From NCBI GenBank assembly GCA_965224465.1, contig OZ245049.1, forward strand, positions 3,510,001 to 3,542,000: a stretch of 32,000 bases of DNA, given 5' to 3'. Shown one piece after another: positions 1-26,968 of the stretch (position 1 is its first letter; the number at the start of each line of letters is the position of its first letter). The stretch is from Flavobacteriaceae bacterium (GTDB taxonomy: Bacteria; Bacteroidota; Bacteroidia; Flavobacteriales; Flavobacteriaceae). The notes beneath the pieces are model-generated. The model was not told where the DNA came from. It worked only from the letters and a program-made list of their open reading frames with translations, and made no database searches. A program made the translations under genes and the position numbers.

Positions 1-1467
1 CACACTCATTAGGGCTAAAAATAACAAAGGAAATGTCATGCTCCTAGGAGATTCATGCGGTGTGTGTGCGTATGTTGTTTTTTTACCGTGAAAAATATTG
101 AAATACAAGCGGAACATATAAAAGGCAGTTAATCCAGCAACAAATAATCCAACGCCATACAATAATTTACTATGCTCGAATGCAGCGACTAAAATCTCGT
201 CTTTAGACCAGAAACCTGAAAAAGGAGGGATGCCAGAAATGGATAAAGCTGCAATTAGAAAGGTGATATGTGTAATGGGCATGTATTTTTTTAAGTTTCC
301 CATATCGCCCATCATATTGCTATGCACGGCATGGATTACAGAACCTGCGGCTAAGAATAATAAGGCCTTGAACATGGAGTGGGTAAATAAATGAAACATA
401 GAAGCCATGTATCCAATTCCTTCGTGACCATCGTATCCAGAAACACCTAAAGCCATCATCATATATCCAATTTGTGACATGGTAGAAAATGCCAATACAC
501 GTTTAATATCGTGTTGAGTAATGGCAATAATGGCAGCAAATAAAGAAGAAAATCCACCTACATAAGCTACAATATTAAGCGCGAATCCATCTTCGATAAA
601 ATAGTACATAGGAAAGAGTCGAGCGACTAAAAAGACGCCTGCAACTACCATTGTAGCAGCGTGAATTAATGCAGAAACAGGGGTGGGACCTTCCATGGCG
701 TCTGGTAGCCAAATATGTAAAGGAAACATCGCCGATTTTCCAGCACCTCCAATAAAAATTAGAAGCAATGCCCATGTGAATACAGACAGTCCCATAAAGG
801 AAGTAGATGCCCAATTAAGAATCACTTCTCCTGCTGGATTGTTTAAGGTTTCAAAGTCAAAAGTACCTGCATAAAACCCAATGGTGATGATTCCAATAAG
901 GAAAAATAAATCAGCAAAACGAGTGACAATAAAGGCTTTTTTTGCCGCCATTATAGCCGATGGTTTTGTGTAATAATAACCTATTAGTAAAAAAGAAGAT
1001 ACACCTACTAATTCCCAAAAAATATAAATTTGGAAGAGGTTGGTTGACAATACCAATCCCAGCATGGAAAAGGTAAAAAGAGATAAAAATGCGAAAAACT
1101 TAGTGTATCCTTGATCTCCTTTCATATAGCCTCTACTGTAAATATGAACGACTAGAGAAATGGTTGATACTACAATCAACATCATTATAGATATAGGATC
1201 TATTAAAATACCCATGTCTATATGCAAGGTGTCTGTAAAGTGCATCCATACCGTCTTGTATATTATCTGTTGGTATGCTCCATCTAATTTTACAGTGGTA
1301 AAAAAGTACTTGTAGGCAGTGTAATAAGATAGGAGGGCGCTAGCCAATAATCCGAAGACTCCTATATATCCAGAAACAGCAGGTTTTATTCGTTTGTAAT
1401 TGAGTCCTAGAATCAAGAAAACTACAAACGGAATAAGTGGTATTAATATGGTATAACTAAAGTTCAT
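1..1467 (-). CDS. nuoL: NADH-quinone oxidoreductase subunit L, N-terminal 489 codons (C-terminus lies beyond the window start)
   Basis: Hand translation from ATG at 1467: MNFSYTILIPLIPFVVFLILG... The frame stays open to base 1. Polytopic antiporter-like sequence (WELVGVSSFLLIGYYY, HAATMVVAGVFL). It follows nuoK by 6 nt. Confidence 0.85.
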   Translation of the reverse strand, partial: MNFSYTILIPLIPFVVFLILGLNYKRIKPAVSGYIGVFGLLASALLSYYTAYKYFFTTVKLDGAYQQIIYKTVWMHFTDTLHIDMGILIDPISIMMLIVVSTISLVVHIYSRGYMKGDQGYTKFFAFLSLFTFSMLGLVLSTNLFQIYIFWELVGVSSFLLIGYYYTKPSAIMAAKKAFIVTRFADLFFLIGIITIGFYAGTFDFETLNNPAGEVILNWASTSFMGLSVFTWALLLIFIGGAGKSAMFPLHIWLPDAMEGPTPVSALIHAATMVVAGVFLVARLFPMYYFIEDGFALNIVAYVGGFSSLFAAIIAITQHDIKRVLAFSTMSQIGYMMMALGVSGYDGHEGIGYMASMFHLFTHSMFKALLFLAAGSVIHAVHSNMMGDMGNLKKYMPITHITFLIAALSISGIPPFSGFWSKDEILVAAFEHSKLLYGVGLFVAGLTAFYMFRLYFNIFHGKKTTYAHTPHESPRSMTFPLLFLALMSV

Positions 1468-1473
1468 GAGCTA

Positions 1474-1791
1474 TCAATATTTTAATGTGGTTGTGTCCTC
1501 AACTTCAACCGAAGTGATGTGTCTATACAAATTAATAATAATGGCGATGGCCAATGCTGTTTCTGCAGCAGCCACTGCGATGATAAATATTCCAAATACA
1601 GCGCCTTCTAATTGGTTAGGAAACATGTATTTGTTAATCACTACAAAGTTTACAACGGTAGCGTTTAAGATCAATTCGATGGACATCAAGACAGAAATTA
1701 GATTTTTTCTGGTGATAAAACCATAAATACCAATAAAAAACAATAGGGTAGTGAGGCTGAGTATTTCGTAGATGCTGACTCCTAAAATCAT
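1474..1791 (-). CDS. nuoK: NADH-quinone oxidoreductase subunit K
   Basis: 105-aa three-TM protein with a conserved membrane Glu (AAETALAIAII). Sits between nuoJ and nuoL with a 4-nt overlap to nuoJ. Confidence 0.9.
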   Translation of the reverse strand: MILGVSIYEILSLTTLLFFIGIYGFITRKNLISVLMSIELILNATVVNFVVINKYMFPNQLEGAVFGIFIIAVAAAETALAIAIIINLYRHITSVEVEDTTTLKY

Positions 1792-2312
1792 AGTTTTGAT
1801 GCTTTTTTATCGGTTAGTTTGTTGTTTTTGGCAACAATTATAGCGCCTATCATAGTTGCGAGTAATAAGATACTAATGACTTCAAAGGGCAATATAAAAC
1901 CGCCTTCTCCTACACTCAAGAATTTTTCTCCAAGGGTAGAAACTTCAATGGCATTGTAATTTTCAATAACCTTAAAATTATGCGTCCATATCACATATAA
2001 AAAAGTACCTGTTCCTGCCAAGCAAAGTAGCCCCGTAATTATTTTTCGGAATGGTTTTGCCATTTCCAATTCCATTTCTATATGATGAATTAAGAACACA
2101 GAGAAAATAACTAAGATAATAACCCCTCCAGCATATACGGTGAGTTGTATGGCTGCAAGAAAATTATAATCTAAAAGAAAATAGATGCCCGCTATCCCCA
2201 TAAGTACAAATAGCAAATAAATCACGGAACGCAGCATTTTTTTGCTCGTAACCGATGCAATGGCCATTCCTATAATAACAATTGCTAGGATGTAAAATAT
2301 AATTTGTTCCAT
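1788..2312 (-). CDS. nuoJ: NADH-quinone oxidoreductase subunit J
   Basis: 174-aa polytopic protein at the nuoJ position in the operon. Confidence 0.85.
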   Translation of the reverse strand: MEQIIFYILAIVIIGMAIASVTSKKMLRSVIYLLFVLMGIAGIYFLLDYNFLAAIQLTVYAGGVIILVIFSVFLIHHIEMELEMAKPFRKIITGLLCLAGTGTFLYVIWTHNFKVIENYNAIEVSTLGEKFLSVGEGGFILPFEVISILLLATMIGAIIVAKNNKLTDKKASKL

Positions 2313-2315
2313 AGT

Positions 2316-2792
2316 TTAATCTTCTACGCCAGGTTGTAGTTTGGAGCCTGGCTTGTTTAATACACGTGTTAAATGTTTTCTGTCGTAAACAGAATTCTCG
2401 AAATTTTGCCCCCAAATAATTGCGTCCGTAGGGCAAGCCTCTATACAAAGTCCGCACATGGTACACATTCCTAAATGATAAATATGTTGGTCTATTTTTT
2501 TCTTCTTTTTACCCGTCTCTGGATTTATTGCTCTGTCCCAAATAATTTCGATGGTTCCATTTGGACAGGCAATTTCACATTTTTGACATCCAGTACAGCG
2601 GTGTTCGTTGTTTGTATCATGTGGCATAATTACTTCTCCTCTAAATCGATCGAACATTTTTAATGTCTCTCTATTTTCTGGGTATTGTTGTGTAATTGCA
2701 CCTGAACGGGCTTTTAATAAATACTTTCCGGTAACACGCATACCTGCAAGTAATGTTTTTATCCCATTGTATATGTCAGAAAAATAACTCAT
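2316..2792 (-). CDS. nuoI: NADH-quinone oxidoreductase subunit I (2x[4Fe-4S])
   Basis: Two ferredoxin motifs: CTGCQKCEIACP and CTMCGLCIEACP. Start trimmed to ATG 2792 (MSYFSDIYNG...), just after the nuoH stop at 2798. The 237-aa track ORF is an upstream run-on inside nuoH. Confidence 0.9.
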   Translation of the reverse strand: MSYFSDIYNGIKTLLAGMRVTGKYLLKARSGAITQQYPENRETLKMFDRFRGEVIMPHDTNNEHRCTGCQKCEIACPNGTIEIIWDRAINPETGKKKKKIDQHIYHLGMCTMCGLCIEACPTDAIIWGQNFENSVYDRKHLTRVLNKPGSKLQPGVED

Positions 2793-2797
2793 AATTC

Positions 2798-3862
2798 TTA
2801 AAATTGAATGGTTAGGTTTTGCCAAACGATGAATGCCATAAGGACAATATTCATTAAGTTTAACGGTAGTAAATATTTCCATTCCAAGGTTAATAATTGG
2901 TCGATGCGCAACCGAGGAAATGTCCATCGGAACCACATCATTAAAATAATGATAAGGAATGTTTTGAGTCCAAACCAAAAGATACCTAATATAGGAATGG
3001 ATGCTGTAATGCCAAAGGGAGATAACCAAGCGCCAAAGAAAACCGTAGTGCCAATGGCTGCAATGATAAACATATTAATGAATTCTGCTAAAAAGAAATA
3101 AGCGAATTTCATTCCCGAATATTCGGTATGGAAACCTGCACCTAATTCTGATTCCGCTTCGACCAAATCAAAGGGAGCACGATTTGTCTCTGCAGTTCCA
3201 GCAATCATATATATCATAAAAGCGATAAGTGCTGGGATGTGTCCTTGGACGATAAGCCAACCGTTTTTTTGTACTTCTACTATTTCAGAGAGTTGTAAAG
3301 AACCACTGATTAAAACCATGGTTAATAAAGATAATCCTACTGATAACTCGTAACTAATAGTTTGAACGCCACTTCGCATGGCGCCAATTAAGGCAAATTT
3401 ATTATTGCTTGCCCAACCTCCTAATAAGATGCCAATGACTCCGATAGAGGAGATAGCGATTAAAAAGAAAATTCCAATATTGATGTCAAAGGCTTGAAAT
3501 TCTTCCGAGAAAGGAAAAACGGATAAGGCTAATAAGGCGGTGATAATTGGAAAATAAGGAGCTAGATTGAATAAAAATTTGTCGGCATTGTCTGTAATTG
3601 TTAATTCTTTAGAGACTAATTTTAAGGCATCTGCCATGGTTTGTAAGAGCCCTTTGTAGCCTACTCGATTTGGACCTAGACGCAATTGAAACCAAGCGGC
3701 TACTTTGCGTTCTAGCAATACAAGGTATAATCCAGCGATGGCAAATAGTGCTAAATACACGGTGGCAATCAATATCATTTCTACGATACTTGCCACTCCC
3801 TCCGGCATAAGATTAAAAAGCCAATCGTGTATGTTTTTTGTGATGGATAATGGTATTTTCAC
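2798..3862 (-). CDS. nuoH: NADH-quinone oxidoreductase subunit H
   Basis: 354-aa polytopic protein with the NuoH/ND1 signature (RKVAAWFQLRLGPNRVGYKGLLQTMADALKL; EAESELGAGFHTEYSG). Confidence 0.92.
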   Translation of the reverse strand: MKIPLSITKNIHDWLFNLMPEGVASIVEMILIATVYLALFAIAGLYLVLLERKVAAWFQLRLGPNRVGYKGLLQTMADALKLVSKELTITDNADKFLFNLAPYFPIITALLALSVFPFSEEFQAFDINIGIFFLIAISSIGVIGILLGGWASNNKFALIGAMRSGVQTISYELSVGLSLLTMVLISGSLQLSEIVEVQKNGWLIVQGHIPALIAFMIYMIAGTAETNRAPFDLVEAESELGAGFHTEYSGMKFAYFFLAEFINMFIIAAIGTTVFFGAWLSPFGITASIPILGIFWFGLKTFLIIILMMWFRWTFPRLRIDQLLTLEWKYLLPLNLMNIVLMAFIVWQNLTIQF

Positions 3863-7546: not shown

Positions 7547-9406
7547 TTATGAATTTGAAAGTTGTTTGAATTTTTCAATTAACTCATTGTTTCCAAATGG
7601 TAATCCTTGCATTTTATGGAATTCCGAGAATTTGAATTGATCTAAAGTGCTTTTTAAAATACTAGCAAACTGACCTCTATTTAATTCGCAAACAACGATT
7701 TTTTTATACTTAGAAAATATATCTGCGGTGTTTTTTGGCAACGGGTTGATATAATTAAAATGTGCCAATCCAATATTTTCGTTTCCGTTGTCTGTCATTT
7801 CTTTTACTGCGGAGTGAAGTGAACCATAAGTTCCTCCCCATCCTACAACTAATAGTTCTCCTTTTTGAGCAAATTCTGCTTTTATTTCAGGGATGTAATT
7901 GGCGACTCTTTCAATTTTTTCTGCTCTTATGCTAGTCATCAACTCATGGTTGTTTGGTGCATAGGAAATATCACCCGTAATACGGTCTTTTTCCAACCCA
8001 CCTACTCGGTGTTCTAGTCCTGGAGTTCCTGGTATTGCCCAAACACGTGCTAGAGATTCTTCATCTCTGTCATAAGGATGCCAGTTTTCTGTTGGCTTTT
8101 CTTTTTTGTGATGGGTGATTTTTGGTAAGTCAGCAACTGATTTTATTTTCCAAGGAGCAGATCCGTTTGCAATATACCCATCGGTTAATAAAATAACAGG
8201 TGTCATGTGTTCCAAAGCCAATTTAGCAGCTTGGAATGCGTAATCAAAACAGTTGGCAGGTGTGCTTGCTGCAATTACAATTACAGGGCTTTCTCCATTA
8301 CGACCATACATGGCTTGTAATAAATCTGACTGCTCCGTTTTGGTTGGTAATCCTGTAGAGGGACCTCCACGTTGTACATTTACAATTACCAAAGGTAATT
8401 CCGTCATCATGGCCAATCCGATGGCTTCTCCTTTTAAGGCAAGTCCTGGTCCGGAGGTGGTTGTGATGGCTAGGTTTCCAGCAAAAGAGGCTCCGATTGC
8501 AGAACAAATTCCTGCAATTTCATCTTCTGCTTGAAAAGCTCTGACTCCGAAGTGCTTGTGTTTTGCCAGCTCGTGCAAAATATCTGTAGCAGGAGTAATA
8601 GGGTATGAGCCTAAAAATAATTCCAATCCACTCTTTTCAGCAGCTGCCAAGAATCCCCATGCAGTAGCGGTATTACCCATTACAATTCTGTATGTTCCTG
8701 GATCCATTTTGGCAGGAGTAATGGTATACGAATTTGGTATTAATTCTAAGGTTTCTGCAAAGAAATATCCTGCATTTAATACTTTCGTATTTGCTTGGAC
8801 GATGTGTGGCTTGCTCTTAAATTTTTTCTTTAAAAAATCTATGGTATGTTGAATAGATCTATCATACATCCAGTATACCATTCCTAAAGCAAACATGTTT
8901 TTACTTCGGGTAATACTTTTGTTGTCTAGACCTTCTATGTCTTTTACAGCCTCTTTGGTTAGGGAGGTCATAGATACTTCTATAACTCGGTAGTTATCTA
9001 AACTTCCATCTTCCAAAGGGTTGGTCTCGTACAATGCTTTTATTAAGTTTTTTTTGCTAAAAGCATCCGTGTCTACAATTACTGTATGCCCTGGTTTTAA
9101 GGCGTCAATATTTGTTTTTAATCCTGCGGGATTCATGGCTACTAGTAAATCAAGATTGTCTCCTGGTGTACTAATGGCTACGCTTCCAATATGTACTTGG
9201 AATCCCGATACGCCATACAAGCTCCCTTGTGGAGCTCTAATTTCGGAGGGATAGTTTGGGAATGTTGCAATGTCATTTCCAAACATGGCAGAGGTATCAG
9301 AAAACTGAGTTCCTGTCAACTGCATTCCGTCTCCAGAGTCACCAACGAAACGTATAACAACCGCTTCAAGTGCTTCGGGCTGGTGCTTTGTTTTCTCTGT
9401 ATTCAT
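7547..9406 (-). CDS. korA: 2-oxoglutarate (2-oxoacid):ferredoxin oxidoreductase, alpha subunit
   Basis: 619 aa with a fused gamma/alpha-type architecture (GDSGDGMQLTG..., YPITPATDILH, RGGPSTGLPTKTEQSDL). Paired with korB. Confidence 0.88.
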   Translation of the reverse strand: MNTEKTKHQPEALEAVVIRFVGDSGDGMQLTGTQFSDTSAMFGNDIATFPNYPSEIRAPQGSLYGVSGFQVHIGSVAISTPGDNLDLLVAMNPAGLKTNIDALKPGHTVIVDTDAFSKKNLIKALYETNPLEDGSLDNYRVIEVSMTSLTKEAVKDIEGLDNKSITRSKNMFALGMVYWMYDRSIQHTIDFLKKKFKSKPHIVQANTKVLNAGYFFAETLELIPNSYTITPAKMDPGTYRIVMGNTATAWGFLAAAEKSGLELFLGSYPITPATDILHELAKHKHFGVRAFQAEDEIAGICSAIGASFAGNLAITTTSGPGLALKGEAIGLAMMTELPLVIVNVQRGGPSTGLPTKTEQSDLLQAMYGRNGESPVIVIAASTPANCFDYAFQAAKLALEHMTPVILLTDGYIANGSAPWKIKSVADLPKITHHKKEKPTENWHPYDRDEESLARVWAIPGTPGLEHRVGGLEKDRITGDISYAPNNHELMTSIRAEKIERVANYIPEIKAEFAQKGELLVVGWGGTYGSLHSAVKEMTDNGNENIGLAHFNYINPLPKNTADIFSKYKKIVVCELNRGQFASILKSTLDQFKFSEFHKMQGLPFGNNELIEKFKQLSNS

Positions 9407-11932: not shown

Positions 11933-12230
11933 ACGTCGTTGTCTTCTTCTTTGTTGATCGACAAAGATAGTCAATTCTTTAGTATAAAGGAAGGGAGTAG
12001 GTCTTAGTTGTTGGCTAAAAGTAAAAAGGAAGGTGTAGAATGATGAAATTTGTGGGTTATGTTAAAATAAAGGGTGATTGGTTATAAGAGTTATGGTTTA
12101 TTTGATATTGTGTTAAATAAGTAGTGTGATACAGTTATAATACCAACTACTATTTCCAAATGATGGTTTAGAAATGGAATTATATTTTGTTTTAGCTAGG
12201 CGGAAAAGGGGTGGATAGCCTTAGCGATTG

Positions 12231-12813
12231 TTCTGTTTTTTAACAACGATAGAACGTAACGTAAATTATTTATATCGATTATTTCGGGTTGTAGTTGGTT
12301 TATACCATACACCAATACAAAAATTAAGCGATTTCAAACAAATTAATAGTTTGTAAGGGGTACACTAACCAAGGTTCTAGGTTTTGGATGTCTAGAAAGT
12401 TAATATAATTCAGCGGGTAATATTGCTGTAAATCTTCTAAGGTATAATCTATTTTTATAAAATAGAAATAACCTAGCTTTAAAAAACCTACTAATACCAA
12501 CACAAACTCTCCGTGTAAGACAATGCGGAAAAATTGTTTGAATTTATAGGTGTTTTTTATAGTGTAAATAAATTGACCTACCCTTAGGCATAAGGCTACC
12601 AAACTACTTCTGATTAAAATTAATAATGGCATAGCCTAGCCATGTCCATTTTTGTTGTGAGGTTAAAAGTGGTTTTACTTGTTCTTGTGCTAGTTGATCT
12701 GAGTAGAAGTTAACTAATAATTCATTAGTATTTAGTAAATACCTAGATGAGTATGTTAAGCTCATCGAAGTAATACATAGAATGGAATATAAATATTTAT
12801 TCTTATAGCACAT
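12231..12813 (-). pseudogene. Decayed membrane-protein gene, copy A1 (paralog of 13940-14544)
   Basis: The two track ORFs (12604-12813 and 12324-12632) are homologous pieces of one gene. Joining them needs a +1 shift at ...KWTWLGY / PLLILIRSS. A TAA follows FEIA where copy A2 has TAC, and one T is missing in the next run. About 90 percent nucleotide identity to A2 over 12136-12655. Confidence 0.7.
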
Positions 12814-12904
12814 GAAAACTATATAAATTACATGTTAATGAGAAACTATTAATATTATGTGTAACTTTCTTTAGAGTAACTTTGTACATAGTCAAATTTT
12901 ATAA

Positions 12905-12938
12905 AAAGAGATCGTTGTTTTTAGAACAATCTCTTTTT
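12905..12938. terminator. Hairpin with flanking A and T runs (probable terminator of the 13606-13105 peptide operon)
   Basis: AAGAGAT(C)GTT / AAC(A)ATCTCTT stem with an 8-nt loop. TTTT lies 3' on plus and AAAAA lies 5' on plus. Confidence 0.5.
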
Positions 12939-13104
12939 TGTTTTTATTAGAACTTACAGTCTTGCGTCTAACTTGTTAAGTACTGGAGGTCAGTATCATA
13001 AATATGGGTGGTACGGTTAAAGGAAAGCTGTTACAGGATCTTTTAGCCACAAAGATAAGTGACCTCTTCGCATTTGTCCATACCCTTATACTGTGTTAAA
13101 TAAA

Positions 13105-13344
13105 TTATTCTTGTAATTTTTTTGATTTTCCTTGTTTGTGTTTTAGCTCTTTATGAAATACTATTGCAGAAATAACTAGAGATACTAAAGTGAAAATCAT
13201 TCCAATAAATTTTAGATCAAAGATTTTATAATAAATATCTTCAACAATAATAGATATTAATAAGCCTATTAATAATAATATTAAAATGTAGATAACACTT
13301 AAGAAATTTTTTGATAGAAATGTTGTTTTATTATTCTTTTTCAT
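13105..13344 (-). CDS. Small two-TM membrane protein, immunity-like (cassette 1)
   Basis: 79 aa from ATG 13344 (MKKNNKTTFLSKNFLSVIYILILLLIGLLISIIV...FIGMIFTLVSLVISAIVF...KQGKSKKLQE). Two hydrophobic helices and a basic tail. Lies 67 nt downstream of peptide P1. The function is positional inference only. Confidence 0.6.
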   Translation of the reverse strand: MKKNNKTTFLSKNFLSVIYILILLLIGLLISIIVEDIYYKIFDLKFIGMIFTLVSLVISAIVFHKELKHKQGKSKKLQE

Positions 13345-13411
13345 TATTTTATGATATCTAGATTTAGAGGGTCGGGGTATCACCAACCATCTAATCTAAG
13401 TTAATATTTAT

Positions 13412-13606
13412 TTAACATGCTAGTCCAGTACCTGCACTACTCACAATAAATCCTGCAGCAGCAAGTCCAGCACCACCTGTTACAACTACGAAACCAGCAA
13501 AACTTATTGCTAAACCTGTAATTGCAAGAGCACAGCCAAGATGCTCCCAGTCCTTCCAGCCGCTAGCTTCTATATTTTCCATTTGATTTAAGTCTAATTT
13601 TTTCAT
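13412..13606 (-). CDS. Leader-bearing Gly/Ala-rich peptide P1 (class II bacteriocin-like; resembles the cerein 7B / lactobin A type)
   Basis: MKKLDLNQMENIEAS-GWKDWEHLGCALAITGLAISFAGFVVVTGGAGLAAAGFIVSSAGTGLAC. Leader has L4, M9, I12 then small residues. Trp-rich core N-terminus, GxxxG-type repeats, Cys25 and a C-terminal Cys64. Confidence 0.75.
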   Translation of the reverse strand: MKKLDLNQMENIEASGWKDWEHLGCALAITGLAISFAGFVVVTGGAGLAAAGFIVSSAGTGLAC

Positions 13607-13620
13607 TTTGTCATTTTTTT

Positions 13621-13785
13621 AATTAATTTTCCCTAATTCATTTAAGGACCCATTAGATTTGGTCCATTTTTGCAAAAATATTATTGTACGACATACCTAA
13701 TTGGTGCGTAGTGTTATTTTTAATGTTAAGGGGAAATACTGTTTAGAAATTTAAACGATATTGTAAATGTATTTTTTTTTTTTTT
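13621..13785 (-). promoter_or_regulatory. Conserved upstream module B1 (promoter plus about 65-nt leader) of peptide gene P1
   Basis: About 90 percent identical to 17480-17640, and its first 46 bp to 16377-16422. On the minus strand it contains TATTTTTG (plus 13673-13680), matching the TAnnTTTG -7 consensus. It also has a GGACC-N10-GGTCC inverted repeat and a T14 tract at 13772-13785. Confidence 0.5.
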
Positions 13786-13939
13786 GTATTCCCAATTTTT
13801 TAAGATGTTTTTTTGTGTCGAGGTGTTGTATGTTTGGTGTGTGTTGTGGAAAGTGTATAATACCAACTACATTTCCAAATGACGGTTTAGAAATGGAATT
13901 ATATTTTGTTTTAGCTAGGCGGGAAATGGATGGATAGCC

Positions 13940-14544
13940 TTAGCGATTGTTCTGTTTTTTCAACAACGATAGAACGTAAAGTAAATTATTTATATCGATT
14001 ATTTCGGGTTGTAGTTGGTTTATACCATACACCAATACAAAAAAGTAAGCGATTTCAAACAAATTAATAGTTTGTAAGGGGTACACGAACCGAGGTTCTA
14101 GGTTTTGTATGTTTAGAAAGTTAATGTAACTTATTGGGTAATATCGCTATAAATCTTCTAAGGTATAATCTGTTTTTATAAAATAGAAATAACCTAGCTT
14201 AAAAAAAACGACGAGTACCAATACAAACTCACCTATTAAGGCAATTCGGAAAAACTGCTTAAATTTATAGGTGTTTTCTACATTGTATATAAATTGACCT
14301 ATGCTTAGGCAAAGTGCGACTAAACTGCTTCTGATTAAAATTAATAATGGCATAACTAATCCATGCCCATTTTTGTTTTGAATATTTCTTCTATTTGTTT
14401 TTGTGCTAATTGTTCTGAGTAAAAATTATATAATAGTTCTTCTATTTTTAATGAATTACTTGTGCTAATTATTAAAATAATAGTTATTAATAGAATTAGC
14501 AGAAATAATATAATATTATTTATTTTAACATGTTTAAATGTCAT
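13940..14544 (-). pseudogene. Decayed membrane-protein gene, copy A2
   Basis: Track ORFs 14356-14544 and 14147-14353, plus an in-frame continuation to TAA at 13940 (…RYYPISYINFLNIQNLEPRFVYPLQTINLFEIAYFFVLVYGINQLQPEIIDINNLLYVLSLLKKQNNR). It is interrupted by TAG at 14147 (CAG in A1) and by two frame shifts around KTK/WAWISY/PLLILIR. Confidence 0.7.
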
Positions 14545-14614
14545 TTTTCTTGTTTGATAGGGGAGGTACGTAAAACTTAACTTACGATGAGGAAAAAATA
14601 TTTTAATATTTTTT

Positions 14615-15705
14615 GGCTCAACTTGTAAATAGCGTATTTATTTCGTAACTTACTGAAAAACAGAATCATTATGGATAATTCAGCTATTTTAAAATATTTT
14701 GACTGTCTAGATGTAACTAAGCAGGATATTTTGCTTAAAGAATTTCAGTCTCTTTGCAAATCAGGAAGTTATGTAGATATTATTAAAATGAGAGGGAATG
14801 CTTTAGATGACAGAAGGGGTGAATGCCCTTACTGCAATGGCTATCACTATATAAAAGCAGGTGTAGATAAAAACAGCAGGCGTTATAAATGTAAAGATTG
14901 TAAACGTACTTTTACTGAATTTACCGGCAGTTGGCTAGCTGGGATACACAAAAAGCAACGCATACCAGCCTTTTTAAAAACACTTGAATTGAATTTAAGT
15001 TTGGTTAAAACAGGAAAGGATCTTTCCATAGATCCAGGGACGGCATTTAGATGGCGTCATCGTTTTTTGTCTGCTATGTTCCAAGAAACCACAGGTCATT
15101 TCAAAGGAATCACCGAGAGTGATGAGACCTTTTATTTACACAGTCAAAAAGGTAAACAGTGTGTGCATAGACCTCCCAGAAGTAGATCAGAAAAAAAGGG
15201 AGCTGGTATAACAAAAGAATACGCTGCGGTATTAACAACCCAAGATAGAGCAGAACTATGCGTGTCTAAATTTACAAATATGGGCAGAATTACCAAGAGT
15301 AATATAAAAAACACTATCGGAAGCATGGTAGATAATAGAACCGTATTTTGTTCTGATGGACACCGTAGTTTTACTGGTTTTAGTAAGGATTTACATTTAG
15401 AGCATCATGTTTTAAACAGTAGTAAAAACCAACGAGTCAAAGGGACTTATCATATTCAGCACATCAATAGTTTGCATAGTAGGTTAAAGACATTTTGTAA
15501 CGTAAAATTAAAAGGAGTATCCACAAAATATCTTCAAAAATATTTAAATTGGCAAACAATTAAAGATTCATATCTTAAAGAATCAAATTGGGTAGTTACT
15601 GTCCTTAAGTACTCAATGAAACGTTCAAATGCAATTAAAATATATAACAATATCCAAACTGATTATGACAAAATTTTTATAACAACGCTAAATGCTAGTT
15701 GAGCC
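14615..15705 (+). mobile_element. Intact IS1595-family insertion sequence (1091 bp) with 8-bp target-site duplication
   Basis: Terminal inverted repeats are GGCTCAACTTGTAAATAGCG (14615-) and CGCTAAATGCTAGTTGAGCC (-15705), matching at 16 of 20 positions. Identical TATTTTTT flanks lie at 14607-14614 and 15706-15713. The element carries a single transposase ORF. Confidence 0.88.
14671..15702 (+). CDS. IS1595-family (ISXO2-like DDE) transposase with N-terminal zinc ribbon
   Basis: CPYCNGYHYIKAGVDKNSRRYKCKDCKRTFT zinc ribbon. ITESDETFY and VFCSDGHRSF acidic motifs. 343 aa, filling the IS. Confidence 0.85.
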   Translation: MDNSAILKYFDCLDVTKQDILLKEFQSLCKSGSYVDIIKMRGNALDDRRGECPYCNGYHYIKAGVDKNSRRYKCKDCKRTFTEFTGSWLAGIHKKQRIPAFLKTLELNLSLVKTGKDLSIDPGTAFRWRHRFLSAMFQETTGHFKGITESDETFYLHSQKGKQCVHRPPRSRSEKKGAGITKEYAAVLTTQDRAELCVSKFTNMGRITKSNIKNTIGSMVDNRTVFCSDGHRSFTGFSKDLHLEHHVLNSSKNQRVKGTYHIQHINSLHSRLKTFCNVKLKGVSTKYLQKYLNWQTIKDSYLKESNWVVTVLKYSMKRSNAIKIYNNIQTDYDKIFITTLNAS

Positions 15706-15772
15706 TATTTTTTCTATCTCCGGTTACTGCTATTAGAATAATAGTTGAAGATTTAAGTTTTTTTAGTTTAAT

Positions 15773-15805
15773 AAAGAGACTGCCTTTTTTTTTGACAGTC
15801 TCTTT
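15773..15805. terminator. Perfect 10-bp hairpin (AAAGAGACTG / CAGTCTCTTT) between the IS and cassette 2
   Basis: Read directly. T-rich 13-nt loop, 15 nt beyond the stop of the immunity-like gene at 15820. Terminator function is inferred. Confidence 0.45.
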
Positions 15806-15819
15806 GTTTTCTTAATTAT

Positions 15820-15981
15820 CTATTCTTTCTTTCTAGTAAAGAAAATAAGGCTAAATATAACAATATAACTAATGCCGACTAGCCATTTGTTTATTTGATG
15901 ATCTGTAAAATATCTTATGTAAAAAATAATCACTGAGGATACAAATGCAATGCCTATTATAATTTTTAAATAGATTTTCAT
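15820..15981 (-). CDS. Small two-TM membrane protein, immunity-like (cassette 2)
   Basis: 53 aa: MKIYLKIIIGIAFVSSVIIFYIRYFTDHQINKWLVGISYIVIFSLIFFTRKKE. Its ATG overlaps the TAA of P3 by 1 nt (TAATG), which suggests translational coupling. The 98-aa track ORF 15820-16116 is a run-on of this frame. Confidence 0.65.
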   Translation of the reverse strand: MKIYLKIIIGIAFVSSVIIFYIRYFTDHQINKWLVGISYIVIFSLIFFTRKKE

Positions 15982-16178
15982 TATCTTACTGCGTAAATGG
16001 CACATCCACCAGCTATCGTAAGTACAGCAAGTCCCGCTCCCCAACCTATAGGGTTCCAGAGGTTTGCGACTACGCCGATTTCGAATGCGATTGCAACAGC
16101 GCCAAAGCCAGCACAAAAAGATTCTATATTGTCACCTACTTGAATTGTTTCTAACGTTGAAATTTCTAAAGTTTTCAT
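15981..16178 (-). CDS. Leader-bearing Gly/Ala-rich peptide P3 (bacteriocin-like)
   Basis: MKTLEISTLETIQVG-DNIESFCAGFGAVAIAFEIGVVANLWNPIGWGAGLAVLTIAGGCAIYAVR. Shares the A-N-(L/F)-W-N-P-x-G motif with P4. Cys22 and Cys59. Confidence 0.75.
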   Translation of the reverse strand: MKTLEISTLETIQVGDNIESFCAGFGAVAIAFEIGVVANLWNPIGWGAGLAVLTIAGGCAIYAVR

Positions 16179-16189
16179 ATTTATTTGTT

Positions 16190-16369
16190 TTAAGTCTTAC
16201 ATTTATAATCTGAATAAGAAACGGCGAGATACGCTGTAATTAATCCTCCCCAACCGAAAAACAATGCCCCGGCAACACCTGCACCCGCCATAAATGCGAA
16301 CCTCACTTCTGGGGAACAGTCATATCCTGCATATAGAACCTCCATTTTTTCAAATTCTAATACTTTCAT
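16190..16369 (-). CDS. Leader-bearing Gly/Ala-rich peptide P2 (bacteriocin-like; not in the ORF track, 59 aa)
   Basis: Hand translation: MKVLEFEKMEVLYAG-YDCSPEVRFAFMAGAGVAGALFFGWGGLITAYLAVSYSDYKCKT, stop TAA at 16190-16192. Same leader spacing as the others. Lies 11 nt upstream of P3. Cys18 and Cys57. Confidence 0.7.
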   Translation of the reverse strand: MKVLEFEKMEVLYAGYDCSPEVRFAFMAGAGVAGALFFGWGGLITAYLAVSYSDYKCKT

Positions 16370-16376
16370 AATTTCT

Positions 16377-16422
16377 TAATTTCCCTAATTCATTTAAGGA
16401 CCCATTAGATTTGGTCCATTTT
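16377..16422 (-). promoter_or_regulatory. Partial copy (B3) of the conserved peptide-gene leader
   Basis: TAATTTCCCTAATTCATTTAAGGACCCATTAGATTTGGTCCATTTT is near-identical to the ATG-proximal part of B1 and B2. Similarity ends before the -7 box region. Confidence 0.45.
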
Positions 16423-16754
16423 AAAAAAAAATATTTTTATTCTATAATTTGTTGATTTATAGTGATTTTTATATCGTAAAGTAAATCTATTTTTTTTTCT
16501 ATTTGAAAGTATTTGGAGCTTTTTTTTCGAAAAGAGAGTGTTTTTATGGAATATGAATTGTTTTAAATAAATTTCTTTTATATTCGTAACGGCTAGTGTC
16601 GTATGTTTATTTTAAGTGACTGGAGTATAGTTTGTTTGTTGTGTGTGTGTTTAGGGGTTTGTATATGCTTTTTTGTAGAGGATTGTGGTTGAAGTGTTAT
16701 GCCGTCCGAGTATTATGCAATCCGAGTTTCACCCTCGCGAAGACAAAGACCAAG

Positions 16755-17052
16755 CATGAAAAAAAGTGCGCAGGAGTGATAAACACCTCATAAAACCTGA
16801 TTTTCAAAAGCTATACTCTCACCTGAAAAAATCAACACAAAAAAGACCAAACAATAAATGTTCAGCCTTTTTATATATAAAGGTATACGTGTTTATTTAA
16901 ACATGCTAGTAATACTTCCCAGTAGTCCGCCTCCTTGTTCTTTTAGGATACGCGCAATATCACTCATGTCAAATTTCCCGTCATCACCTAATAAGGTAAT
17001 TTTTAAACTAGCAATAGTCTCTGGAACGGTAATAGAAATAAATGTATCAGCC
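16755..17052. repeat. Segmental duplication C1 (copy of 18130-18427)
   Basis: Constant offset of 1375 bp between copies. The repeat covers the 3' 159 nt of the 144-aa gene plus about 140 bp downstream of it. Homology ends sharply at 17052. Confidence 0.8.
16893..17051 (-). pseudogene. 3' fragment of a paralog of the 144-aa gene (last 52 codons only)
   Basis: Reads ADTFISITVPETIASLKITLLGDDGKFDMSDIARILKEQGGGLLGSITSMFK*, against MADKFISITVPETIASLKTTLLGDDGKFDMSDITRILKEQGGGLLGSITSMFK* in 18268-18702. There is no ATG and a TAA lies a few codons upstream. Confidence 0.75.
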
Positions 17053-17084
17053 ACCACCTTGGATGTTTTCCAGTTTTTCTTTAT

Positions 17085-17261
17085 TTAACTTTTTCTTTTA
17101 TTAATGAAATTTGTATGAAGAGTTATTGCTAAAAGTGTAAAAACTAAAATTTTATAACCGTATTTGAATAATTTAATAAAATTAAATATATCTAAAACGA
17201 ATATCAAAAAAATCAATAGTAAAATAAGTATCTTTAGGTTTTTTAAATTTAAATAATTCAT
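17085..17261 (-). CDS. Small two-TM membrane protein, immunity-like (cassette 3; below the ORF-track cutoff)
   Basis: Hand translation, 58 aa: MNYLNLKNLKILILLLIFLIFVLDIFNFIKLFKYGYKILVFTLLAITLHTNFINKRKS. Starts 13 nt after the P4 stop. Confidence 0.6.
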   Translation of the reverse strand: MNYLNLKNLKILILLLIFLIFVLDIFNFIKLFKYGYKILVFTLLAITLHTNFINKRKS

Positions 17262-17274
17262 CTTTCACAGCTAT

Positions 17275-17463
17275 TTAGACAAAAACACACGCGACACCAA
17301 TTACAACCATCCCCGTAAGTACAGATGCACCAAATGGATTCCAAAAATTAGCAAGAGCACTTGCGGCAAATAGTGCGCTCCCAGCGGAGAATGCCTTACA
17401 AGCGTCACTTGCATATCCATTTCCTTGGATAATTGTCATTTGTTCAATTTCTAATACTTTCAT
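17275..17463 (-). CDS. Leader-bearing Gly/Ala-rich peptide P4 (bacteriocin-like)
   Basis: MKVLEIEQMTIIQGN-GYASDACKAFSAGSALFAASALANFWNPFGASVLTGMVVIGVACVFV. Cys22 and Cys59. Confidence 0.75.
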   Translation of the reverse strand: MKVLEIEQMTIIQGNGYASDACKAFSAGSALFAASALANFWNPFGASVLTGMVVIGVACVFV

Positions 17464-17479
17464 AAATTTTCAATTTAAT

Positions 17480-17640
17480 AATTAATTTTCCCTAATTCAT
17501 TTAAGGACTCATTAGCTTTGGTTCATTTTTACAAAAATATTGTTGTACGACATACCTAATTGGTGCGTAGTGTTATTTTTAATGTTAAGGGGAAATACTG
17601 TTTAACAATTTAAACGATGTTGTAAATGTATTTTTTTTTT
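17480..17640 (-). promoter_or_regulatory. Conserved upstream module B2 (promoter plus leader) of peptide gene P4
   Basis: Paralog of 13621-13785. The -7 box TATTTTTG is conserved (plus 17532-17539). The poly-T tract is T10 here and T14 in B1. Confidence 0.5.
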
Positions 17641-17775
17641 ACTATTCCAAGTTTTTGTTGGTTTTTTTTGTATTGAATGTAGTTTTTATGTATTCGTAAT
17701 TGGGTAAAGGGGAGCGTGTTGTGATGTTTGTGTTAACTGGTTGGGCTGTGTTTTGTTTTAATAGCCAACAACAGG

Positions 17776-17796
17776 GTAGTAGTAGTAGTAGTAGTA
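17776..17796. repeat. (GTA)7 trinucleotide microsatellite in non-coding DNA
   Basis: Seven perfect GTA units read directly. No ORF with a start codon spans it. Confidence 0.9.
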
Positions 17797-18129
17797 AGCC
17801 GTTAGGGTAGCTTTTCTAGTGATGCTTCTATTGCAATGCTCCCGCAATGGTGAAAACTAACGAATATAGCTCCCTTGGATGGGCTAGTGTAAGAATATGT
17901 TTTTATTGCTAAAATCATCTTAATTAACATAGGTTAATTATTCCTTATCATAATTTATTACGTTTTTGTGACCCTTTTTCACGCTGAATCCCATCGTTTT
18001 CTGAAATTACGGTTGGGTTTGTTAAGGGGTTGTGTGTTAATAGGTGGATTCGTAGTGGTTTACGCGTTTGGTGACGCGTGTGTCTAAGGCTTGAGAGTTA
18101 ATCATCCAGCGTGTCATCTTGAGAAGGGA

Positions 18130-18427
18130 AGCGTGAAAGAAAGTGCATAAGAGTGAATAATTCCTCACTAAAATCAGGTTTTAAGAACATTGCTCTGAGT
18201 AAAAAAAACCACAAAAAAGACCAAACAATAAATGTTCAGTCTTTCTATATATAATAGGTATACGTGTTTATTTAAACATGCTAGTAATACTTCCCAGTAG
18301 TCCGCCTCCTTGTTCTTTTAGGATACGCGTAATATCACTCATGTCAAATTTCCCGTCATCACCTAATAAGGTGGTTTTTAAACTAGCAATAGTTTCTGGA
18401 ACGGTAATAGAAATAAATTTATCAGCC
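18130..18427. repeat. Segmental duplication C2 (parent copy, inside and downstream of the intact 144-aa gene)
   Basis: See C1. Confidence 0.8.
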
Positions 18428-18702
18428 ATTTCTGACGATACATTCATTTTTTCGTTCAATCCTGTTTTGATAGATGCCGTGATGTCCTTGACCACTTTTT
18501 TGTCCATAATGTCTCCATCTCCTTTAAAAATATCCATTAGCGAACTAATATCTCCAGACATGGCGGTGTCTTTTAATTTTTCCCAAGCCGTGGTTACGGA
18601 TATTTTTACAGCTTCACTTGCTTGATCCGAAGACATTCCTGTAGATTCTTGAATGGCAGCTCCTGCTTTTTCTTTTACGGTATTGATTACTTTGTCAATC
18701 AT
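18268..18702 (-). CDS. Hypothetical soluble 144-aa protein (helical, acidic; C-terminal GGGLLGSITSMFK)
   Basis: Intact ORF with no TM segment or signal peptide. I cannot assign a family confidently. Its 3' third is duplicated at 16893-17051. Confidence 0.7.
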   Translation of the reverse strand: MIDKVINTVKEKAGAAIQESTGMSSDQASEAVKISVTTAWEKLKDTAMSGDISSLMDIFKGDGDIMDKKVVKDITASIKTGLNEKMNVSSEMADKFISITVPETIASLKTTLLGDDGKFDMSDITRILKEQGGGLLGSITSMFK

Positions 18703-18862
18703 TGTTGTAGTTTTTAGTTAATTATTTCTTTTTTAGAATGCTTAAGGTAGTCATTTTTTTAAGTTTCTAAAATTTCATTTTTTATTTTAGGAACTGTTTT
18801 TCGGTTACTTGTGAGTTTTGTATTGTTGTTATAAAGGAATTTCGGTATAATTAACAATCGTT

Positions 18863-26401: not shown

Positions 26402-26968
26402 ATGGAACCAATTTTAGGACAAATTCAAGCATTTGGATTTAATTTTTCGCCACGAGGTTGGGCAAAATGTGATGGACAATTACTAGCAATCAGTTCTAAT
26501 ACTGCGTTGTTTGCACTTTTAGGGACAACGTTTGGAGGAGACGGAAGAACAACATTTGGTCTTCCCGATTTAAGAGGTAGAAGTATTGTTCATGTTGGAA
26601 CTGGACCAGGGCTTTCTTCTGTCTCTTGGGGAGAAAGAGGAGGGCAAGAAAGAATTAAATTAAATGAAACTCATCTACCTGCTCATTCACATGACTTAAC
26701 AAATGGAGAAGCAAACGTTACTGTGCATACTACCAATAATTCTGAGTCTTTAGCTAGCACTGATGGAGGAGCAAACGGATTAGGAACGGATGGTCAAATG
26801 CCTGAAATTTTTCGTGAAAGCCCAACAACTATTGATTATTTAGCAGGTGTGTCTATTTCAGGTAAAACAAACTCAGTAGGAGGGAGTCAGGCTTTTGACT
26901 CGAGAAATCCATTTTTAGGAGTTAATGTTTGTATTGCTTTACAAGGGTTGTTCCCGTCAAGGAGCTGA
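26402..26968 (+). CDS. Phage tail-collar domain protein (MdpB / microcystin-dependent-protein type)
   Basis: N-terminus GQIQAFGFNFSPRGWAKCDGQLLAISSNTALFALLGTTFGGDGRTTFGLPDLRGR is the hallmark collar-domain motif. No signal peptide. Confidence 0.85.
   Translation: MEPILGQIQAFGFNFSPRGWAKCDGQLLAISSNTALFALLGTTFGGDGRTTFGLPDLRGRSIVHVGTGPGLSSVSWGERGGQERIKLNETHLPAHSHDLTNGEANVTVHTTNNSESLASTDGGANGLGTDGQMPEIFRESPTTIDYLAGVSISGKTNSVGGSQAFDSRNPFLGVNVCIALQGLFPSRS

Follow-up and report, generated by a model that had tools for sequence, protein, structure and literature searches.

A lepA-dusB island of a Flavobacteriaceae bacterium as the probable export-less head of a bacteroidetocin-type bacteriocin locus

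Why would a bacterium carry genes for bacteriocin-like peptides, together with small membrane proteins in the position of immunity proteins, and none of the machinery that would process or export those peptides? This question is raised by an island between lepA and dusB (positions 11975-18862) in a 32,000-nt stretch of Flavobacteriaceae DNA (assembly GCA_965224465.1, contig OZ245049.1), the whole of which is referred to here as the window. We find that the island consists of two truncated operon heads and one extra cassette, and not of free-standing orphan cassettes as a preliminary description of the sequence had proposed. In our judgment it is probably what remains of a bacteroidetocin-type class II bacteriocin locus, namely its head, truncated, interrupted by an insertion sequence (IS) and duplicated internally; the locus has no export genes, and immunity would be retained without production. 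The locus is considered truncated and rearranged because both copies of its five-transmembrane (5-TM) accessory gene are broken and its thioredoxin-like and exporter genes are absent. As a discovery the island is modest, being a degraded instance of a published locus type.

Truncated operon heads and their intact relatives

Read along the minus strand, the island begins with a 144-aa gene, which is followed by a cassette of upstream block, peptide P4 and its partner gene, by a fragment of the 144-aa gene, and by a second cassette of block, P2, P3, partner and terminator. An IS1595-family element, copy B of the 5-TM gene, a third cassette of block, P1, partner and terminator, and copy A of the 5-TM gene complete the series up to lepA. 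The three peptide-and-partner units (P1; P2 with P3; P4) are intact, and terminator-like hairpins follow the first two. The preliminary inventory contained these cassettes, and it overlooked the two disrupted 5-TM copies, the IS1595 element and the duplicated gene fragment. The peptide and partner open reading frames (ORFs) are the following.

13412..13606, minus strand: P1 precursor, 64 aa; leader MKKLDLNQMENIEAS; Cys25 and Cys64; divergent 'gamma' subtype
13105..13344, minus strand: partner of P1, 79 aa; two hydrophobic segments and a basic tail; position and architecture as in the small transmembrane (TM) ORFs of the intact loci L003 and L005
16190..16369, minus strand: P2 precursor, 59 aa; leader MKVLEFEKMEVLYAG; Cys18 and Cys57; 'beta' subtype with AGAGVAGA-FFGWGGL
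15981..16178, minus strand: P3 precursor, 65 aa; leader MKTLEISTLETIQVG; Cys22 and Cys59; 'alpha' subtype with an NLWNPIGW turn
15820..15981, minus strand: partner of the P2/P3 pair, 53 aa; two TM segments and a basic tail; its start overlaps the P3 stop (TAATG)
17275..17463, minus strand: P4 precursor, 62 aa; leader MKVLEIEQMTIIQGN, followed by G; Cys22 and Cys59; 'alpha' subtype that has no beta partner
17085..17261, minus strand: partner of P4, 58 aa; hydrophobic with a basic tail; putative immunity gene

The evidence that these cassettes are the remains of something larger comes from the DNA between them, in which two disrupted genes and a mobile element were identified.

12196..12813, minus strand: 5-TM accessory gene, copy A, disrupted; found by tblastn with the L004 and L005 proteins (E 7e-26 and 2e-29, respectively) in frames -3 and -1
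13940..14544, minus strand: 5-TM accessory gene, copy B, disrupted; tblastn E 1e-27
14615..15705, plus strand: IS1595-family element with its transposase at 14671-15702 (NF033547, E 5e-44), between the P2-P3 cassette and copy B

Copy A has a frameshift between ...WLGYA and MPLL..., a second frameshift after ...FEIA, and a degenerate N-terminal helix. In its N-terminal part copy B carries the first of these frameshifts and another in an A-rich run, and it has an in-frame TAG where copy A reads CAG. Both copies end about 30 residues before the intact proteins do and lack the fifth and last TM helix. The explanation that all of these lesions are assembly errors is ruled out by the TAG substitution, by the shared frameshift outside any homopolymer and by the shared C-terminal truncation. 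Across the 101 codons that they share (12327-12632 versus 14048-14353), 18 synonymous and 20 non-synonymous changes separate the copies (dN/dS 0.24, dS 0.36), so that most of their divergence arose under purifying selection. They are mosaic, with 96-98% identity in the 3' part and the DNA downstream of it, 87% in the middle and much lower identity at the 5' end, which points to gene conversion or to an independent origin for each operon head. The IS1595 element is bounded by 27-nt imperfect inverted repeats (I1; GGCTCAACT... and ...AGTTGAGCC), and its transposase occurs in at least 10 full or partial copies on the same 5,241,564-bp contig, which marks the genome as IS-rich.

Six intact loci of relatives give the arrangement against which the island can be read. 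They are L001, L003 (Sphingobacterium), L004, L005, L088 (Polaribacter batillariae, complete genome CP071795.1) and L089 (Tenacibaculum geojense), and in each the peptide gene or genes are followed by genes for a 5-TM protein of about 208 aa, an anchored thioredoxin-like protein with a CxxC motif and a C39-ABC exporter, that is, a peptidase-containing ABC transporter (PCAT); L004 and L005 lie on short contigs, on which the exporter is seen only as the start of its C39 domain. The exporters of the intact loci are 714-729 aa long with a QxxxDCG catalytic motif, and the oxidoreductases have an N-terminal anchor and a CxxC motif in the forms CDYC, CEFC and CFFC. The 5-TM gene is intact in L003, L004, L005, L088 and L089. 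In the metagenomic L001, apparent frameshifts within 8004-8422 affect the small TM gene and the 5-TM N-terminus; these are probably assembly errors, and they make the gene calls (40 aa and 147 aa) too short. A small TM ORF stands directly after the peptide gene or genes in four of the six loci (L001, L003, L004 and L005), and in the same position L089 has a 145-aa hydrophobic ORF and L088 a 93-aa ORF that is apparently not membrane-spanning. L001, L004 and a further locus, L090, repeat the beta, alpha, small TM order of the window, and the order alpha, small TM, 5-TM is found in L091. Genes for regulators with a helix-turn-helix (HTH), of the Xre type or other, lie near L001, L003, L005 and L088.

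In the window, copy A adjoins lepA and copy B adjoins the P1 upstream block, at the place where every intact locus continues with its thioredoxin-like and PCAT genes. No significant homologue of the thioredoxin-like protein, the PCAT, the HTH, the membrane-fusion-like or the OEP proteins was found in the 32-kb window by tblastn with the proteins of the intact loci, a result that bears out the earlier statement that the island has no exporter or processing gene. The PCAT is very common elsewhere and is 74-80% identical across Flavobacteriaceae genera (3433 matches), which include Winogradskyella, Polaribacter, Gaetbulibacter, Mesoflavibacter, Tenacibaculum and Yeosuana, and the cores of the peptides adjoining it are hypervariable. 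The 5-TM family has more than 1100 members (1116 matches), annotated as hypothetical or 'Yip1 domain-containing'; one member matches YknW weakly (1.7e-5), below the model threshold. In L088, the region directly before the peptide gene (1-3857) encodes an ABC transporter that lacks a C39 domain, together with a 452-aa protein and an OEP (TolC-like) outer-membrane protein, a set that could be the outer-membrane export route of the peptide family.

The composition of the intact loci is that of bacteroidetocin and bacteroidetocin-like loci, in which the genes for one or more peptides are accompanied by those for a 5-TM protein needed for production, for a thiol oxidoreductase and for a C39-ABC exporter, in four Bacteroidetes classes including Flavobacteriia, and of which bacteroidetocin-like examples have been listed in Flavobacterium, Tenacibaculum, Elizabethkingia, Chryseobacterium and a member of the Sphingobacteriia (PMC6671954). 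Bacteroidetocins have been proposed as class IIf (Coyne et al. 2019, PMC6671954; Matano et al. 2021, PMC8546649). The island had been ranked as a candidate undescribed system; this is not upheld, because the homologous intact loci share the composition reported by Coyne et al. 2019 (PMC6671954). The likeness covers a place in the Bacteroidota, a leader of 15-16 aa (theirs cut after GG), at least two Cys, and loci of window-peptide homologues with exactly the four-part composition. Within the window, a Bacteroidota host and at least two Cys in the mature peptides were found; a GG leader end, an adjacent thiol oxidoreductase and an adjacent C39-ABC exporter were not.

The differences are equally specific. 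The tested bacteroidetocins are water-soluble, somewhat basic and 42 aa long, with four Cys in Bd-A and Bd-B; they bind the outer-membrane protein BamA, and their producers have no immunity gene (PMC6671954, PMC8546649). The window peptides, in contrast, are neutral to acidic, strongly hydrophobic and have two Cys, and by description they are set apart from Bd-A and Bd-B. A small TM gene follows each unit in the window and beta plus alpha pairs occur in some, the 5-TM gene stands after the peptide here and before it there, and the window lacks the oxidoreductase and the exporter and has its 5-TM gene broken.

The peptides, their leaders and their partners

The four minus-strand ORFs of 59-65 codons that had been described are all present, P2 being picked up by the ORF finder only with a length threshold below 60 aa, and they are not chance ORFs, because each has an independent homologue at 52-63% identity. 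A 15-residue acidic leader is common to P1-P4, in which M1, L4, M/L9 and I/L12 fall at positions -15, -12, -7 and -4; the shared leader and its -12/-7/-4 hydrophobic spacing had been recognized in the preliminary description and are kept in all four peptides. Equally in agreement with it, leader positions 14-15 read AS in P1, AG in P2, VG in P3 and GN in P4, and the cores of 44-50 aa are hydrophobic and rich in small-xxx-small motifs (GRAVY 0.5-1.2; Gly plus Ala 30-41%; 6-9 motifs each). Every core has exactly two Cys, the first 3-10 residues past the leader and the second no more than 7 residues from the C-terminus. The AlphaFold2 (AF2) model of P3 folds residues 17-38 and 43-64 into the two helices of a hairpin, with NLWNP at the turn between them (mean pLDDT 72.8), and Cys22 and Cys59 are placed toward the open end of the hairpin in terms of position along the sequence, not of measured distance. 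Neither a Foldseek search of the PDB with this model nor a profile search of PDB sequences with the peptides gave a meaningful match.

A word-indexed search of 5.8 billion proteins returned only seven non-self relatives. An exhaustive search of 1.84 billion cluster representatives with a profile of 11 peptides returned 493 clusters (50% identity) at E<=0.001, nearly all of them 55-75 aa long and matched end to end. The peptide family is therefore large, with at least 493 clusters at 50% identity, and it is unnamed and has no Pfam or NCBIfam model. The closest relatives of P1-P4, identified by BLASTP (E 1e-19 to 5e-25), are P0243 for P1 (52% identity; family hidden Markov model (HMM) E 5.8e-13), P0008 for P2 (63%; E 4e-21), P0004 of L001 for P3 (59%; E 3e-19) and P0133 for P4 (56%; E 5e-25). 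Three subtypes can be told apart: alpha, ...FCAGFGA...NLWNPIGW...C (P3 and P4); beta, ...DC...AGAGVAGA-FFGWGGL...KC (P2); and gamma, ...C...GLGLTFAGAFLVTGPIGAG...C, of which P1 is a divergent member. In one relative, P0174 (135 aa), a single ORF runs through a beta-like and an alpha-like precursor, either as a read-through call or as a natural fusion.

Against Pfam and NCBIfam, P1-P4 and the three partners gave noise only; P1-P4 had no match to PF10439 or TIGR01847 even at E<=10, and none to TIGR03949 or PF17508 MccV. Relatives do match these models weakly. Among 100 family members searched at E<=1, 39 matched PF10439 Bacteriocin_IIc (best E 4.6e-6), 28 PF17508 MccV (best E 1.4e-4), 11 TIGR03949 lactobin A/cerein 7B (best E 8.5e-4) and 9 TIGR01847 (best E 0.024). 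The HMM comparison that had been suggested as a check thus gave nothing for the four peptides and weak matches for their family, and the class IIb appearance that had been attributed to them is borne out by the PF10439 and TIGR03949 matches of relatives, with none in P1-P4 themselves. Taken as sequences, P1-P4 are supported as putative double-glycine-type leader peptides of class II bacteriocin character.

The leader endings require closer attention. PCAT substrates have hydrophobic residues at -4, -7, -12 and -15 and Gly-Gly, Gly-Ala or Gly-Ser at -2/-1; the hydrophobic positions are reported to bind the peptidase domain (PEP) of the PCAT, and the GG motif to be required for binding by PEP and for cleavage (PMC7018657). 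P1-P4 keep all four hydrophobic positions, and their endings are none of GG, GA or GS. Family statistics were drawn from 150 representatives, whose leader consensus is MKxLELNQMExhxGG and whose positions 14-15 are GG in 77%, AG in 11% and G followed by D/E/N/S/A/Y in about 9% (G followed by D/E/N in about 5%). In 89% of these representatives the core contains two Cys and no more. Position 14 is solely G or A in these leaders, and V at -2 occurs in none of the 150. The pairs AS (P1) and VG (P3) are unseen among the representatives and private to the island, and the nearest relatives have GG where P1 has AS and where P3 has VG. The AG of P2 is also present in the intact Polaribacter (L088) and Tenacibaculum (L089) loci and in P0008, and the G-N-G of P4 mirrors the G-E-G of P0133 (QGEG). 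The non-canonical dipeptides emphasized in the preliminary description are consequently of two kinds: AS and VG are foreign to the family sample, and AG and G plus D/E/N belong to its minor forms. In a leave-one-out comparison of leader conformity, P1-P4 stand at the 43rd, 11th, 2.7th and 8.7th family percentiles, respectively, and four non-GG leaders have a probability of 0.227^4 = 0.003 if they are treated as independent draws, a figure that is arithmetic from the family frequencies. Leaders so far off consensus would fit a relaxed constraint on processing.

Each unit ends in a small partner gene. The two-TM architecture with a basic tail that had been ascribed to all three partners applies in part: the ORFs and the tails are present in every case and two segments in the 79-aa and 53-aa proteins, and the 58-aa protein has one long merged hydrophobic segment (residues 4-33 in a crude scan). 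The ORFs that follow the alpha peptide gene in L001 and L090 are homologues of the 53-aa partner (E 1e-8 for L001, with nine sequences compared), and the motif YFT-x-x-Q-(I/V)-NKW is common to the post-alpha small TM proteins of the window, L001 and L090. The type of small TM partner co-varies with the peptide subtype. Equivalent small TM genes sit likewise in the homologous loci, which agrees with the immunity-like position first noted for them, and we regard the 79-, 53- and 58-aa partner genes as putative immunity genes.

The cassettes also resemble one another outside their coding regions, in the following elements.

13607..13781, minus strand: P1 upstream block; box TATTTTTG, then the inverted repeat GGACC-N10-GGTCC; repeat families D3 and D4; aligns with L003
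16370..16430, minus strand: P2-P3 upstream element; 62-nt core of the conserved block; repeat family D4
17467..17640, minus strand: P4 upstream block; 93% identical to the P1 block; inverted repeat weakened (GAACC...GAGTCC); D3
12905..12937, minus strand: terminator-like hairpin and T-run that follow the P1 cassette; seen by reading the sequence, missed by the pattern scan
15770..15808, minus strand: hairpin after the P2-P3-partner unit; terminator-like; inverted repeat I10

The conserved upstream element aligns at 13617-13678, 16369-16430 and 17476-17537 of the window and at 9870-9930 of L003. The upstream blocks are 84-93% identical and the coding payloads next to them are of unrelated subtypes; the P1 and P4 blocks (174 nt) reach 93% despite payloads of different subtype. 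Since conserved flanks surround variable payloads, cassette exchange is suggested, and together with unequal recombination it may have shaped the island. The TATTTTTG box is presumably a Bacteroidota-type -7 box (consensus TAnnTTTG). At the inverted-repeat site the Sphingobacterium locus reads GGTCA-N-TGACC, which amounts to two compensatory changes, and the P4 copy has two mismatches. The inverted repeat is possibly an operator or a 5' stem. As an RNA element it was rejected, as its folding energy is no better than that of shuffled sequences (z -0.15 to -0.9) and the P4 copy is mismatched. A sigma-70 promoter scan, which is not informative for Bacteroidota, gave 25 sites against 34 expected.

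A probable path from an exporting locus to an immunity-keeping island

In an intact locus of this type, the PCAT would recognize the leader through its hydrophobic residues at -15, -12, -7 and -4 and its small residues at -2 and -1, would cut after residue 15 and would move the core across the inner membrane. The anchored oxidoreductase would then join the two Cys in the periplasm, stapling the open end of the two-helix hairpin, and the hydrophobic, Gly/Ala-rich hairpin, alone or as a beta plus alpha pair, would attack the cytoplasmic membrane of related bacteria, with the adjacent small two-TM protein protecting the producer. We infer an inner-membrane target and cognate immunity because the cores are hydrophobic, uncharged and rich in small-xxx-small motifs and are accompanied by a small membrane partner. 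In this genome the locus presumably no longer makes toxin by itself, as no gene of the window could process or export the peptides. Selection would keep mainly the immunity-like genes, and the toxin genes would be carried along in the same transcripts.

More tentatively, and with the balance of our judgment against it as a whole, the entire family may consist of disulfide-stapled, hydrophobic helical-hairpin bacteriocins that hit the cytoplasmic membrane, some of them as two-peptide systems, with the island as an immunity-keeping 'cheater' array left after loss of the export module. The family would have dedicated small immunity proteins because its peptides attack the cytoplasmic membrane, unlike the BamA-binding bacteroidetocins. 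Its hosts would be Flavobacteriia and Sphingobacteriia, and the array would have been built by exchange between upstream blocks and the 5-TM gene.

Known systems outside the Bacteroidota share parts of this scheme. The class IIb two-peptide bacteriocins of Firmicutes (lactobin A/cerein 7B and lactococcin G type; PF10439) likewise have a double-glycine leader, PCAT export, helical Gly/Ala-rich small-xxx-small cores and two precursor genes followed by a membrane immunity gene. They belong to another phylum, however, and have a ComB/LcnD-type accessory where the loci of the peptide family have the 5-TM protein; the peptide family comes from hosts with a Gram-negative envelope, its members carry a Cys pair, its loci include a dedicated oxidoreductase, and P1-P4 reach no threshold of the class IIb models. 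Class IIa microcins (microcin V type, PF17508; PMC12219008) are similar in their Gram-negative producers, 15-aa double-glycine signal, PCAT export, Gly-rich core with a disulfide and adjacent small inner-membrane immunity protein, and different in being longer, in using CvaA/TolC export and in having loci without a thioredoxin-like or 5-TM gene. P1-P4 have no match to PF17508, and no CvaAB/TolC-type exporter or any other lies with them in the window. The pipeline used for microcins missed the bacteroidetocins, because Bacteroidota-type signals diverge from enterobacterial ones (PMC12219008). A functional analogy, with no sequence relation, is offered by pneumococcal blp loci with a disrupted blpA, which have kept their bacteriocin and immunity genes after inactivation of their own PCAT; such strains are immune non-producers or export through another PCAT, ComAB (PMC4739721, PMC4739728, PMC6016807). 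The exporter is frameshifted there and absent from the locus here.

Several observations weigh against a locus that has lost production. The peptide and partner ORFs are intact and have kept both Cys, the four hydrophobic leader positions and the upstream blocks, a pattern consistent with continued use of these genes, possibly for toxins that are exported in trans. Non-GG endings alone are no proof of lost processing: AG leaders occur in the intact L088 and L089, and L003 has two precursors with a non-Gly residue at position 15 (...SQSGQ and ...ISAQG) beside a complete export module. One lesion in each 5-TM copy lies in a homopolymer run, where an assembly error is possible, and either the inactivation of the 5-TM gene is recent or a split and shortened form kept some function. 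On a broader level, activity, expression, cleavage and immunity are all putative for this hydrophobic family.

These points bear most directly on the interpretation offered in the preliminary description, in which the cassettes are functional toxin/immunity orphans whose precursors are cleaved and exported by a C39-PCAT, together with an oxidoreductase, encoded elsewhere in the genome. All seven small ORFs are intact, the upstream blocks are kept, terminator-like hairpins follow two of the three units, the residues at -15, -12, -7 and -4 are conserved in all four leaders, and the AG ending has its counterparts in intact loci. The PCAT type is so common, at 74-80% identity across genera, that a second copy is plausible in a 5.2-Mb genome, and the export of blp bacteriocins by ComAB when blpA is disrupted provides a precedent (PMC4739721, PMC4739728, PMC6016807). 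Against this, the same genome is unrepresented among the best 120 of 3433 PCAT matches and the best 120 of 1116 5-TM matches, which is weak evidence because so many proteins (3433 and 1116) passed the thresholds. The broken relics of the island's own export operon argue for loss and not for a satellite design, P2-P4 have leaders of low conformity (lowest 11% of the family), none of 150 family leaders has V at -2, and the GG motif is reported to be necessary for PEP binding and cleavage (PMC7018657). Export in trans is the main alternative, though on balance a doubtful one.

A more extreme explanation is that the whole island is dead DNA, in which the small ORFs are recent pseudogene-stage leftovers, unexpressed, unselected and open by chance. 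Two disrupted 5-TM copies, an IS insertion, a duplicated gene fragment, an IS-rich genome, four leaders off consensus at -2/-1 and two mismatches in the P4 upstream inverted repeat are what such decay would leave. However, all seven short ORFs are still open, in AT-rich DNA in which stops arise easily, both Cys and the motifs NLWNPIGW and FFGWGGL are kept at 56-63% identity to distant homologues, and upstream blocks of 84-93% identity stand beside unrelated payloads, all of which makes this explanation improbable. Finally, it seems very improbable to us that the peptides are not antibacterial toxins at all and act as secreted signals, or in some cellular role as small membrane proteins, their partners being unconnected to immunity. 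PCATs do also export pheromones (PMC7018657), and curated bacteriocin models match weakly (best E 4.6e-6 in one member, none for P1-P4). Yet hypervariable cores stand beside an export module that is highly conserved, the kind of small TM partner changes with the peptide subtype, and the two-peptide arrangement, the Gly/Ala-rich small-xxx-small helices and the composition of the loci are matched in bacteriocin systems whose toxins are proven (PMC6671954).

An export-less operon head kept for its immunity genes is the interpretation that we consider probable. If our view of the peptide family is right, marine and soil Bacteroidota would carry a very widespread competition system in which a conserved export and oxidation module serves hypervariable two-Cys peptides with immunity-like partners. 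The island would illustrate a route of decay in which the exporter is lost first and the toxin and immunity heads persist and multiply, in parallel with the exporter-deficient blp loci, and such islands may mark immune non-producers in natural Flavobacteriaceae populations. For annotation, the combination of an MKxLELNQMExhxGG leader, two Cys and 5-TM, thioredoxin-like and PCAT neighbours would serve as a signature that finds short genes which are rarely named.

The lepA-dusB site and neighbouring features

The site that the island occupies is itself informative. The LepA of the window is 84-91% identical to Flavobacteriaceae LepA (Lutibacter 90%), and these bacteria have the lepA-dusB arrangement in common. 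The divergent lepA-dusB pair is conserved across Flavobacteriaceae (L008-L087), and the comparison of this interval that had been proposed finds it variable, with a gap of about 0.1 kb to more than 9 kb among 80 relatives, none of which is the window genome itself. The gap looks like a recurrent integration site for accessory DNA. Peptides of the family, the 5-TM gene and the PCAT were found in the lepA-dusB gap of none of the 80 relatives (0/80), and the insert is strain- or species-specific. The G+C content of the island is 29-31%, compared with 35-40% in the flanks. No Rfam family (E<=0.1) was detected in the island, and ARAGORN reported no tRNA and no tmRNA.

Two further features at the dusB side of the island were identified.

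18268..18702, minus strand: 144-aa ORF at the dusB end; no Pfam or NCBIfam match
16827..17057, minus strand: second copy of the 3' end of the 144-aa gene, terminator hairpin included; repeats D2 (97%) and D5 (91%)

The 144-aa ORF, for which no homologue was found beside lepA in the 80 relatives, is probably not part of the bacteriocin system. A second copy of its last approximately 55 codons and of its terminator lies 1.4 kb away, in the interval that separates the P4 and P2 units, and terminator-like hairpins are found at 16872-16840 (fragment) and 18246-18214 (144-aa gene). A non-coding (GTA)7 trinucleotide repeat lies at about 17776-17796, between the 144-aa gene and the P4 upstream block. 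Farther along the window, among the housekeeping genes truB, uppP and ftsX, the ORF at 26402-26968 encodes a protein of 188 aa that contains a phage tail collar domain (PF07484, E 2.8e-28).

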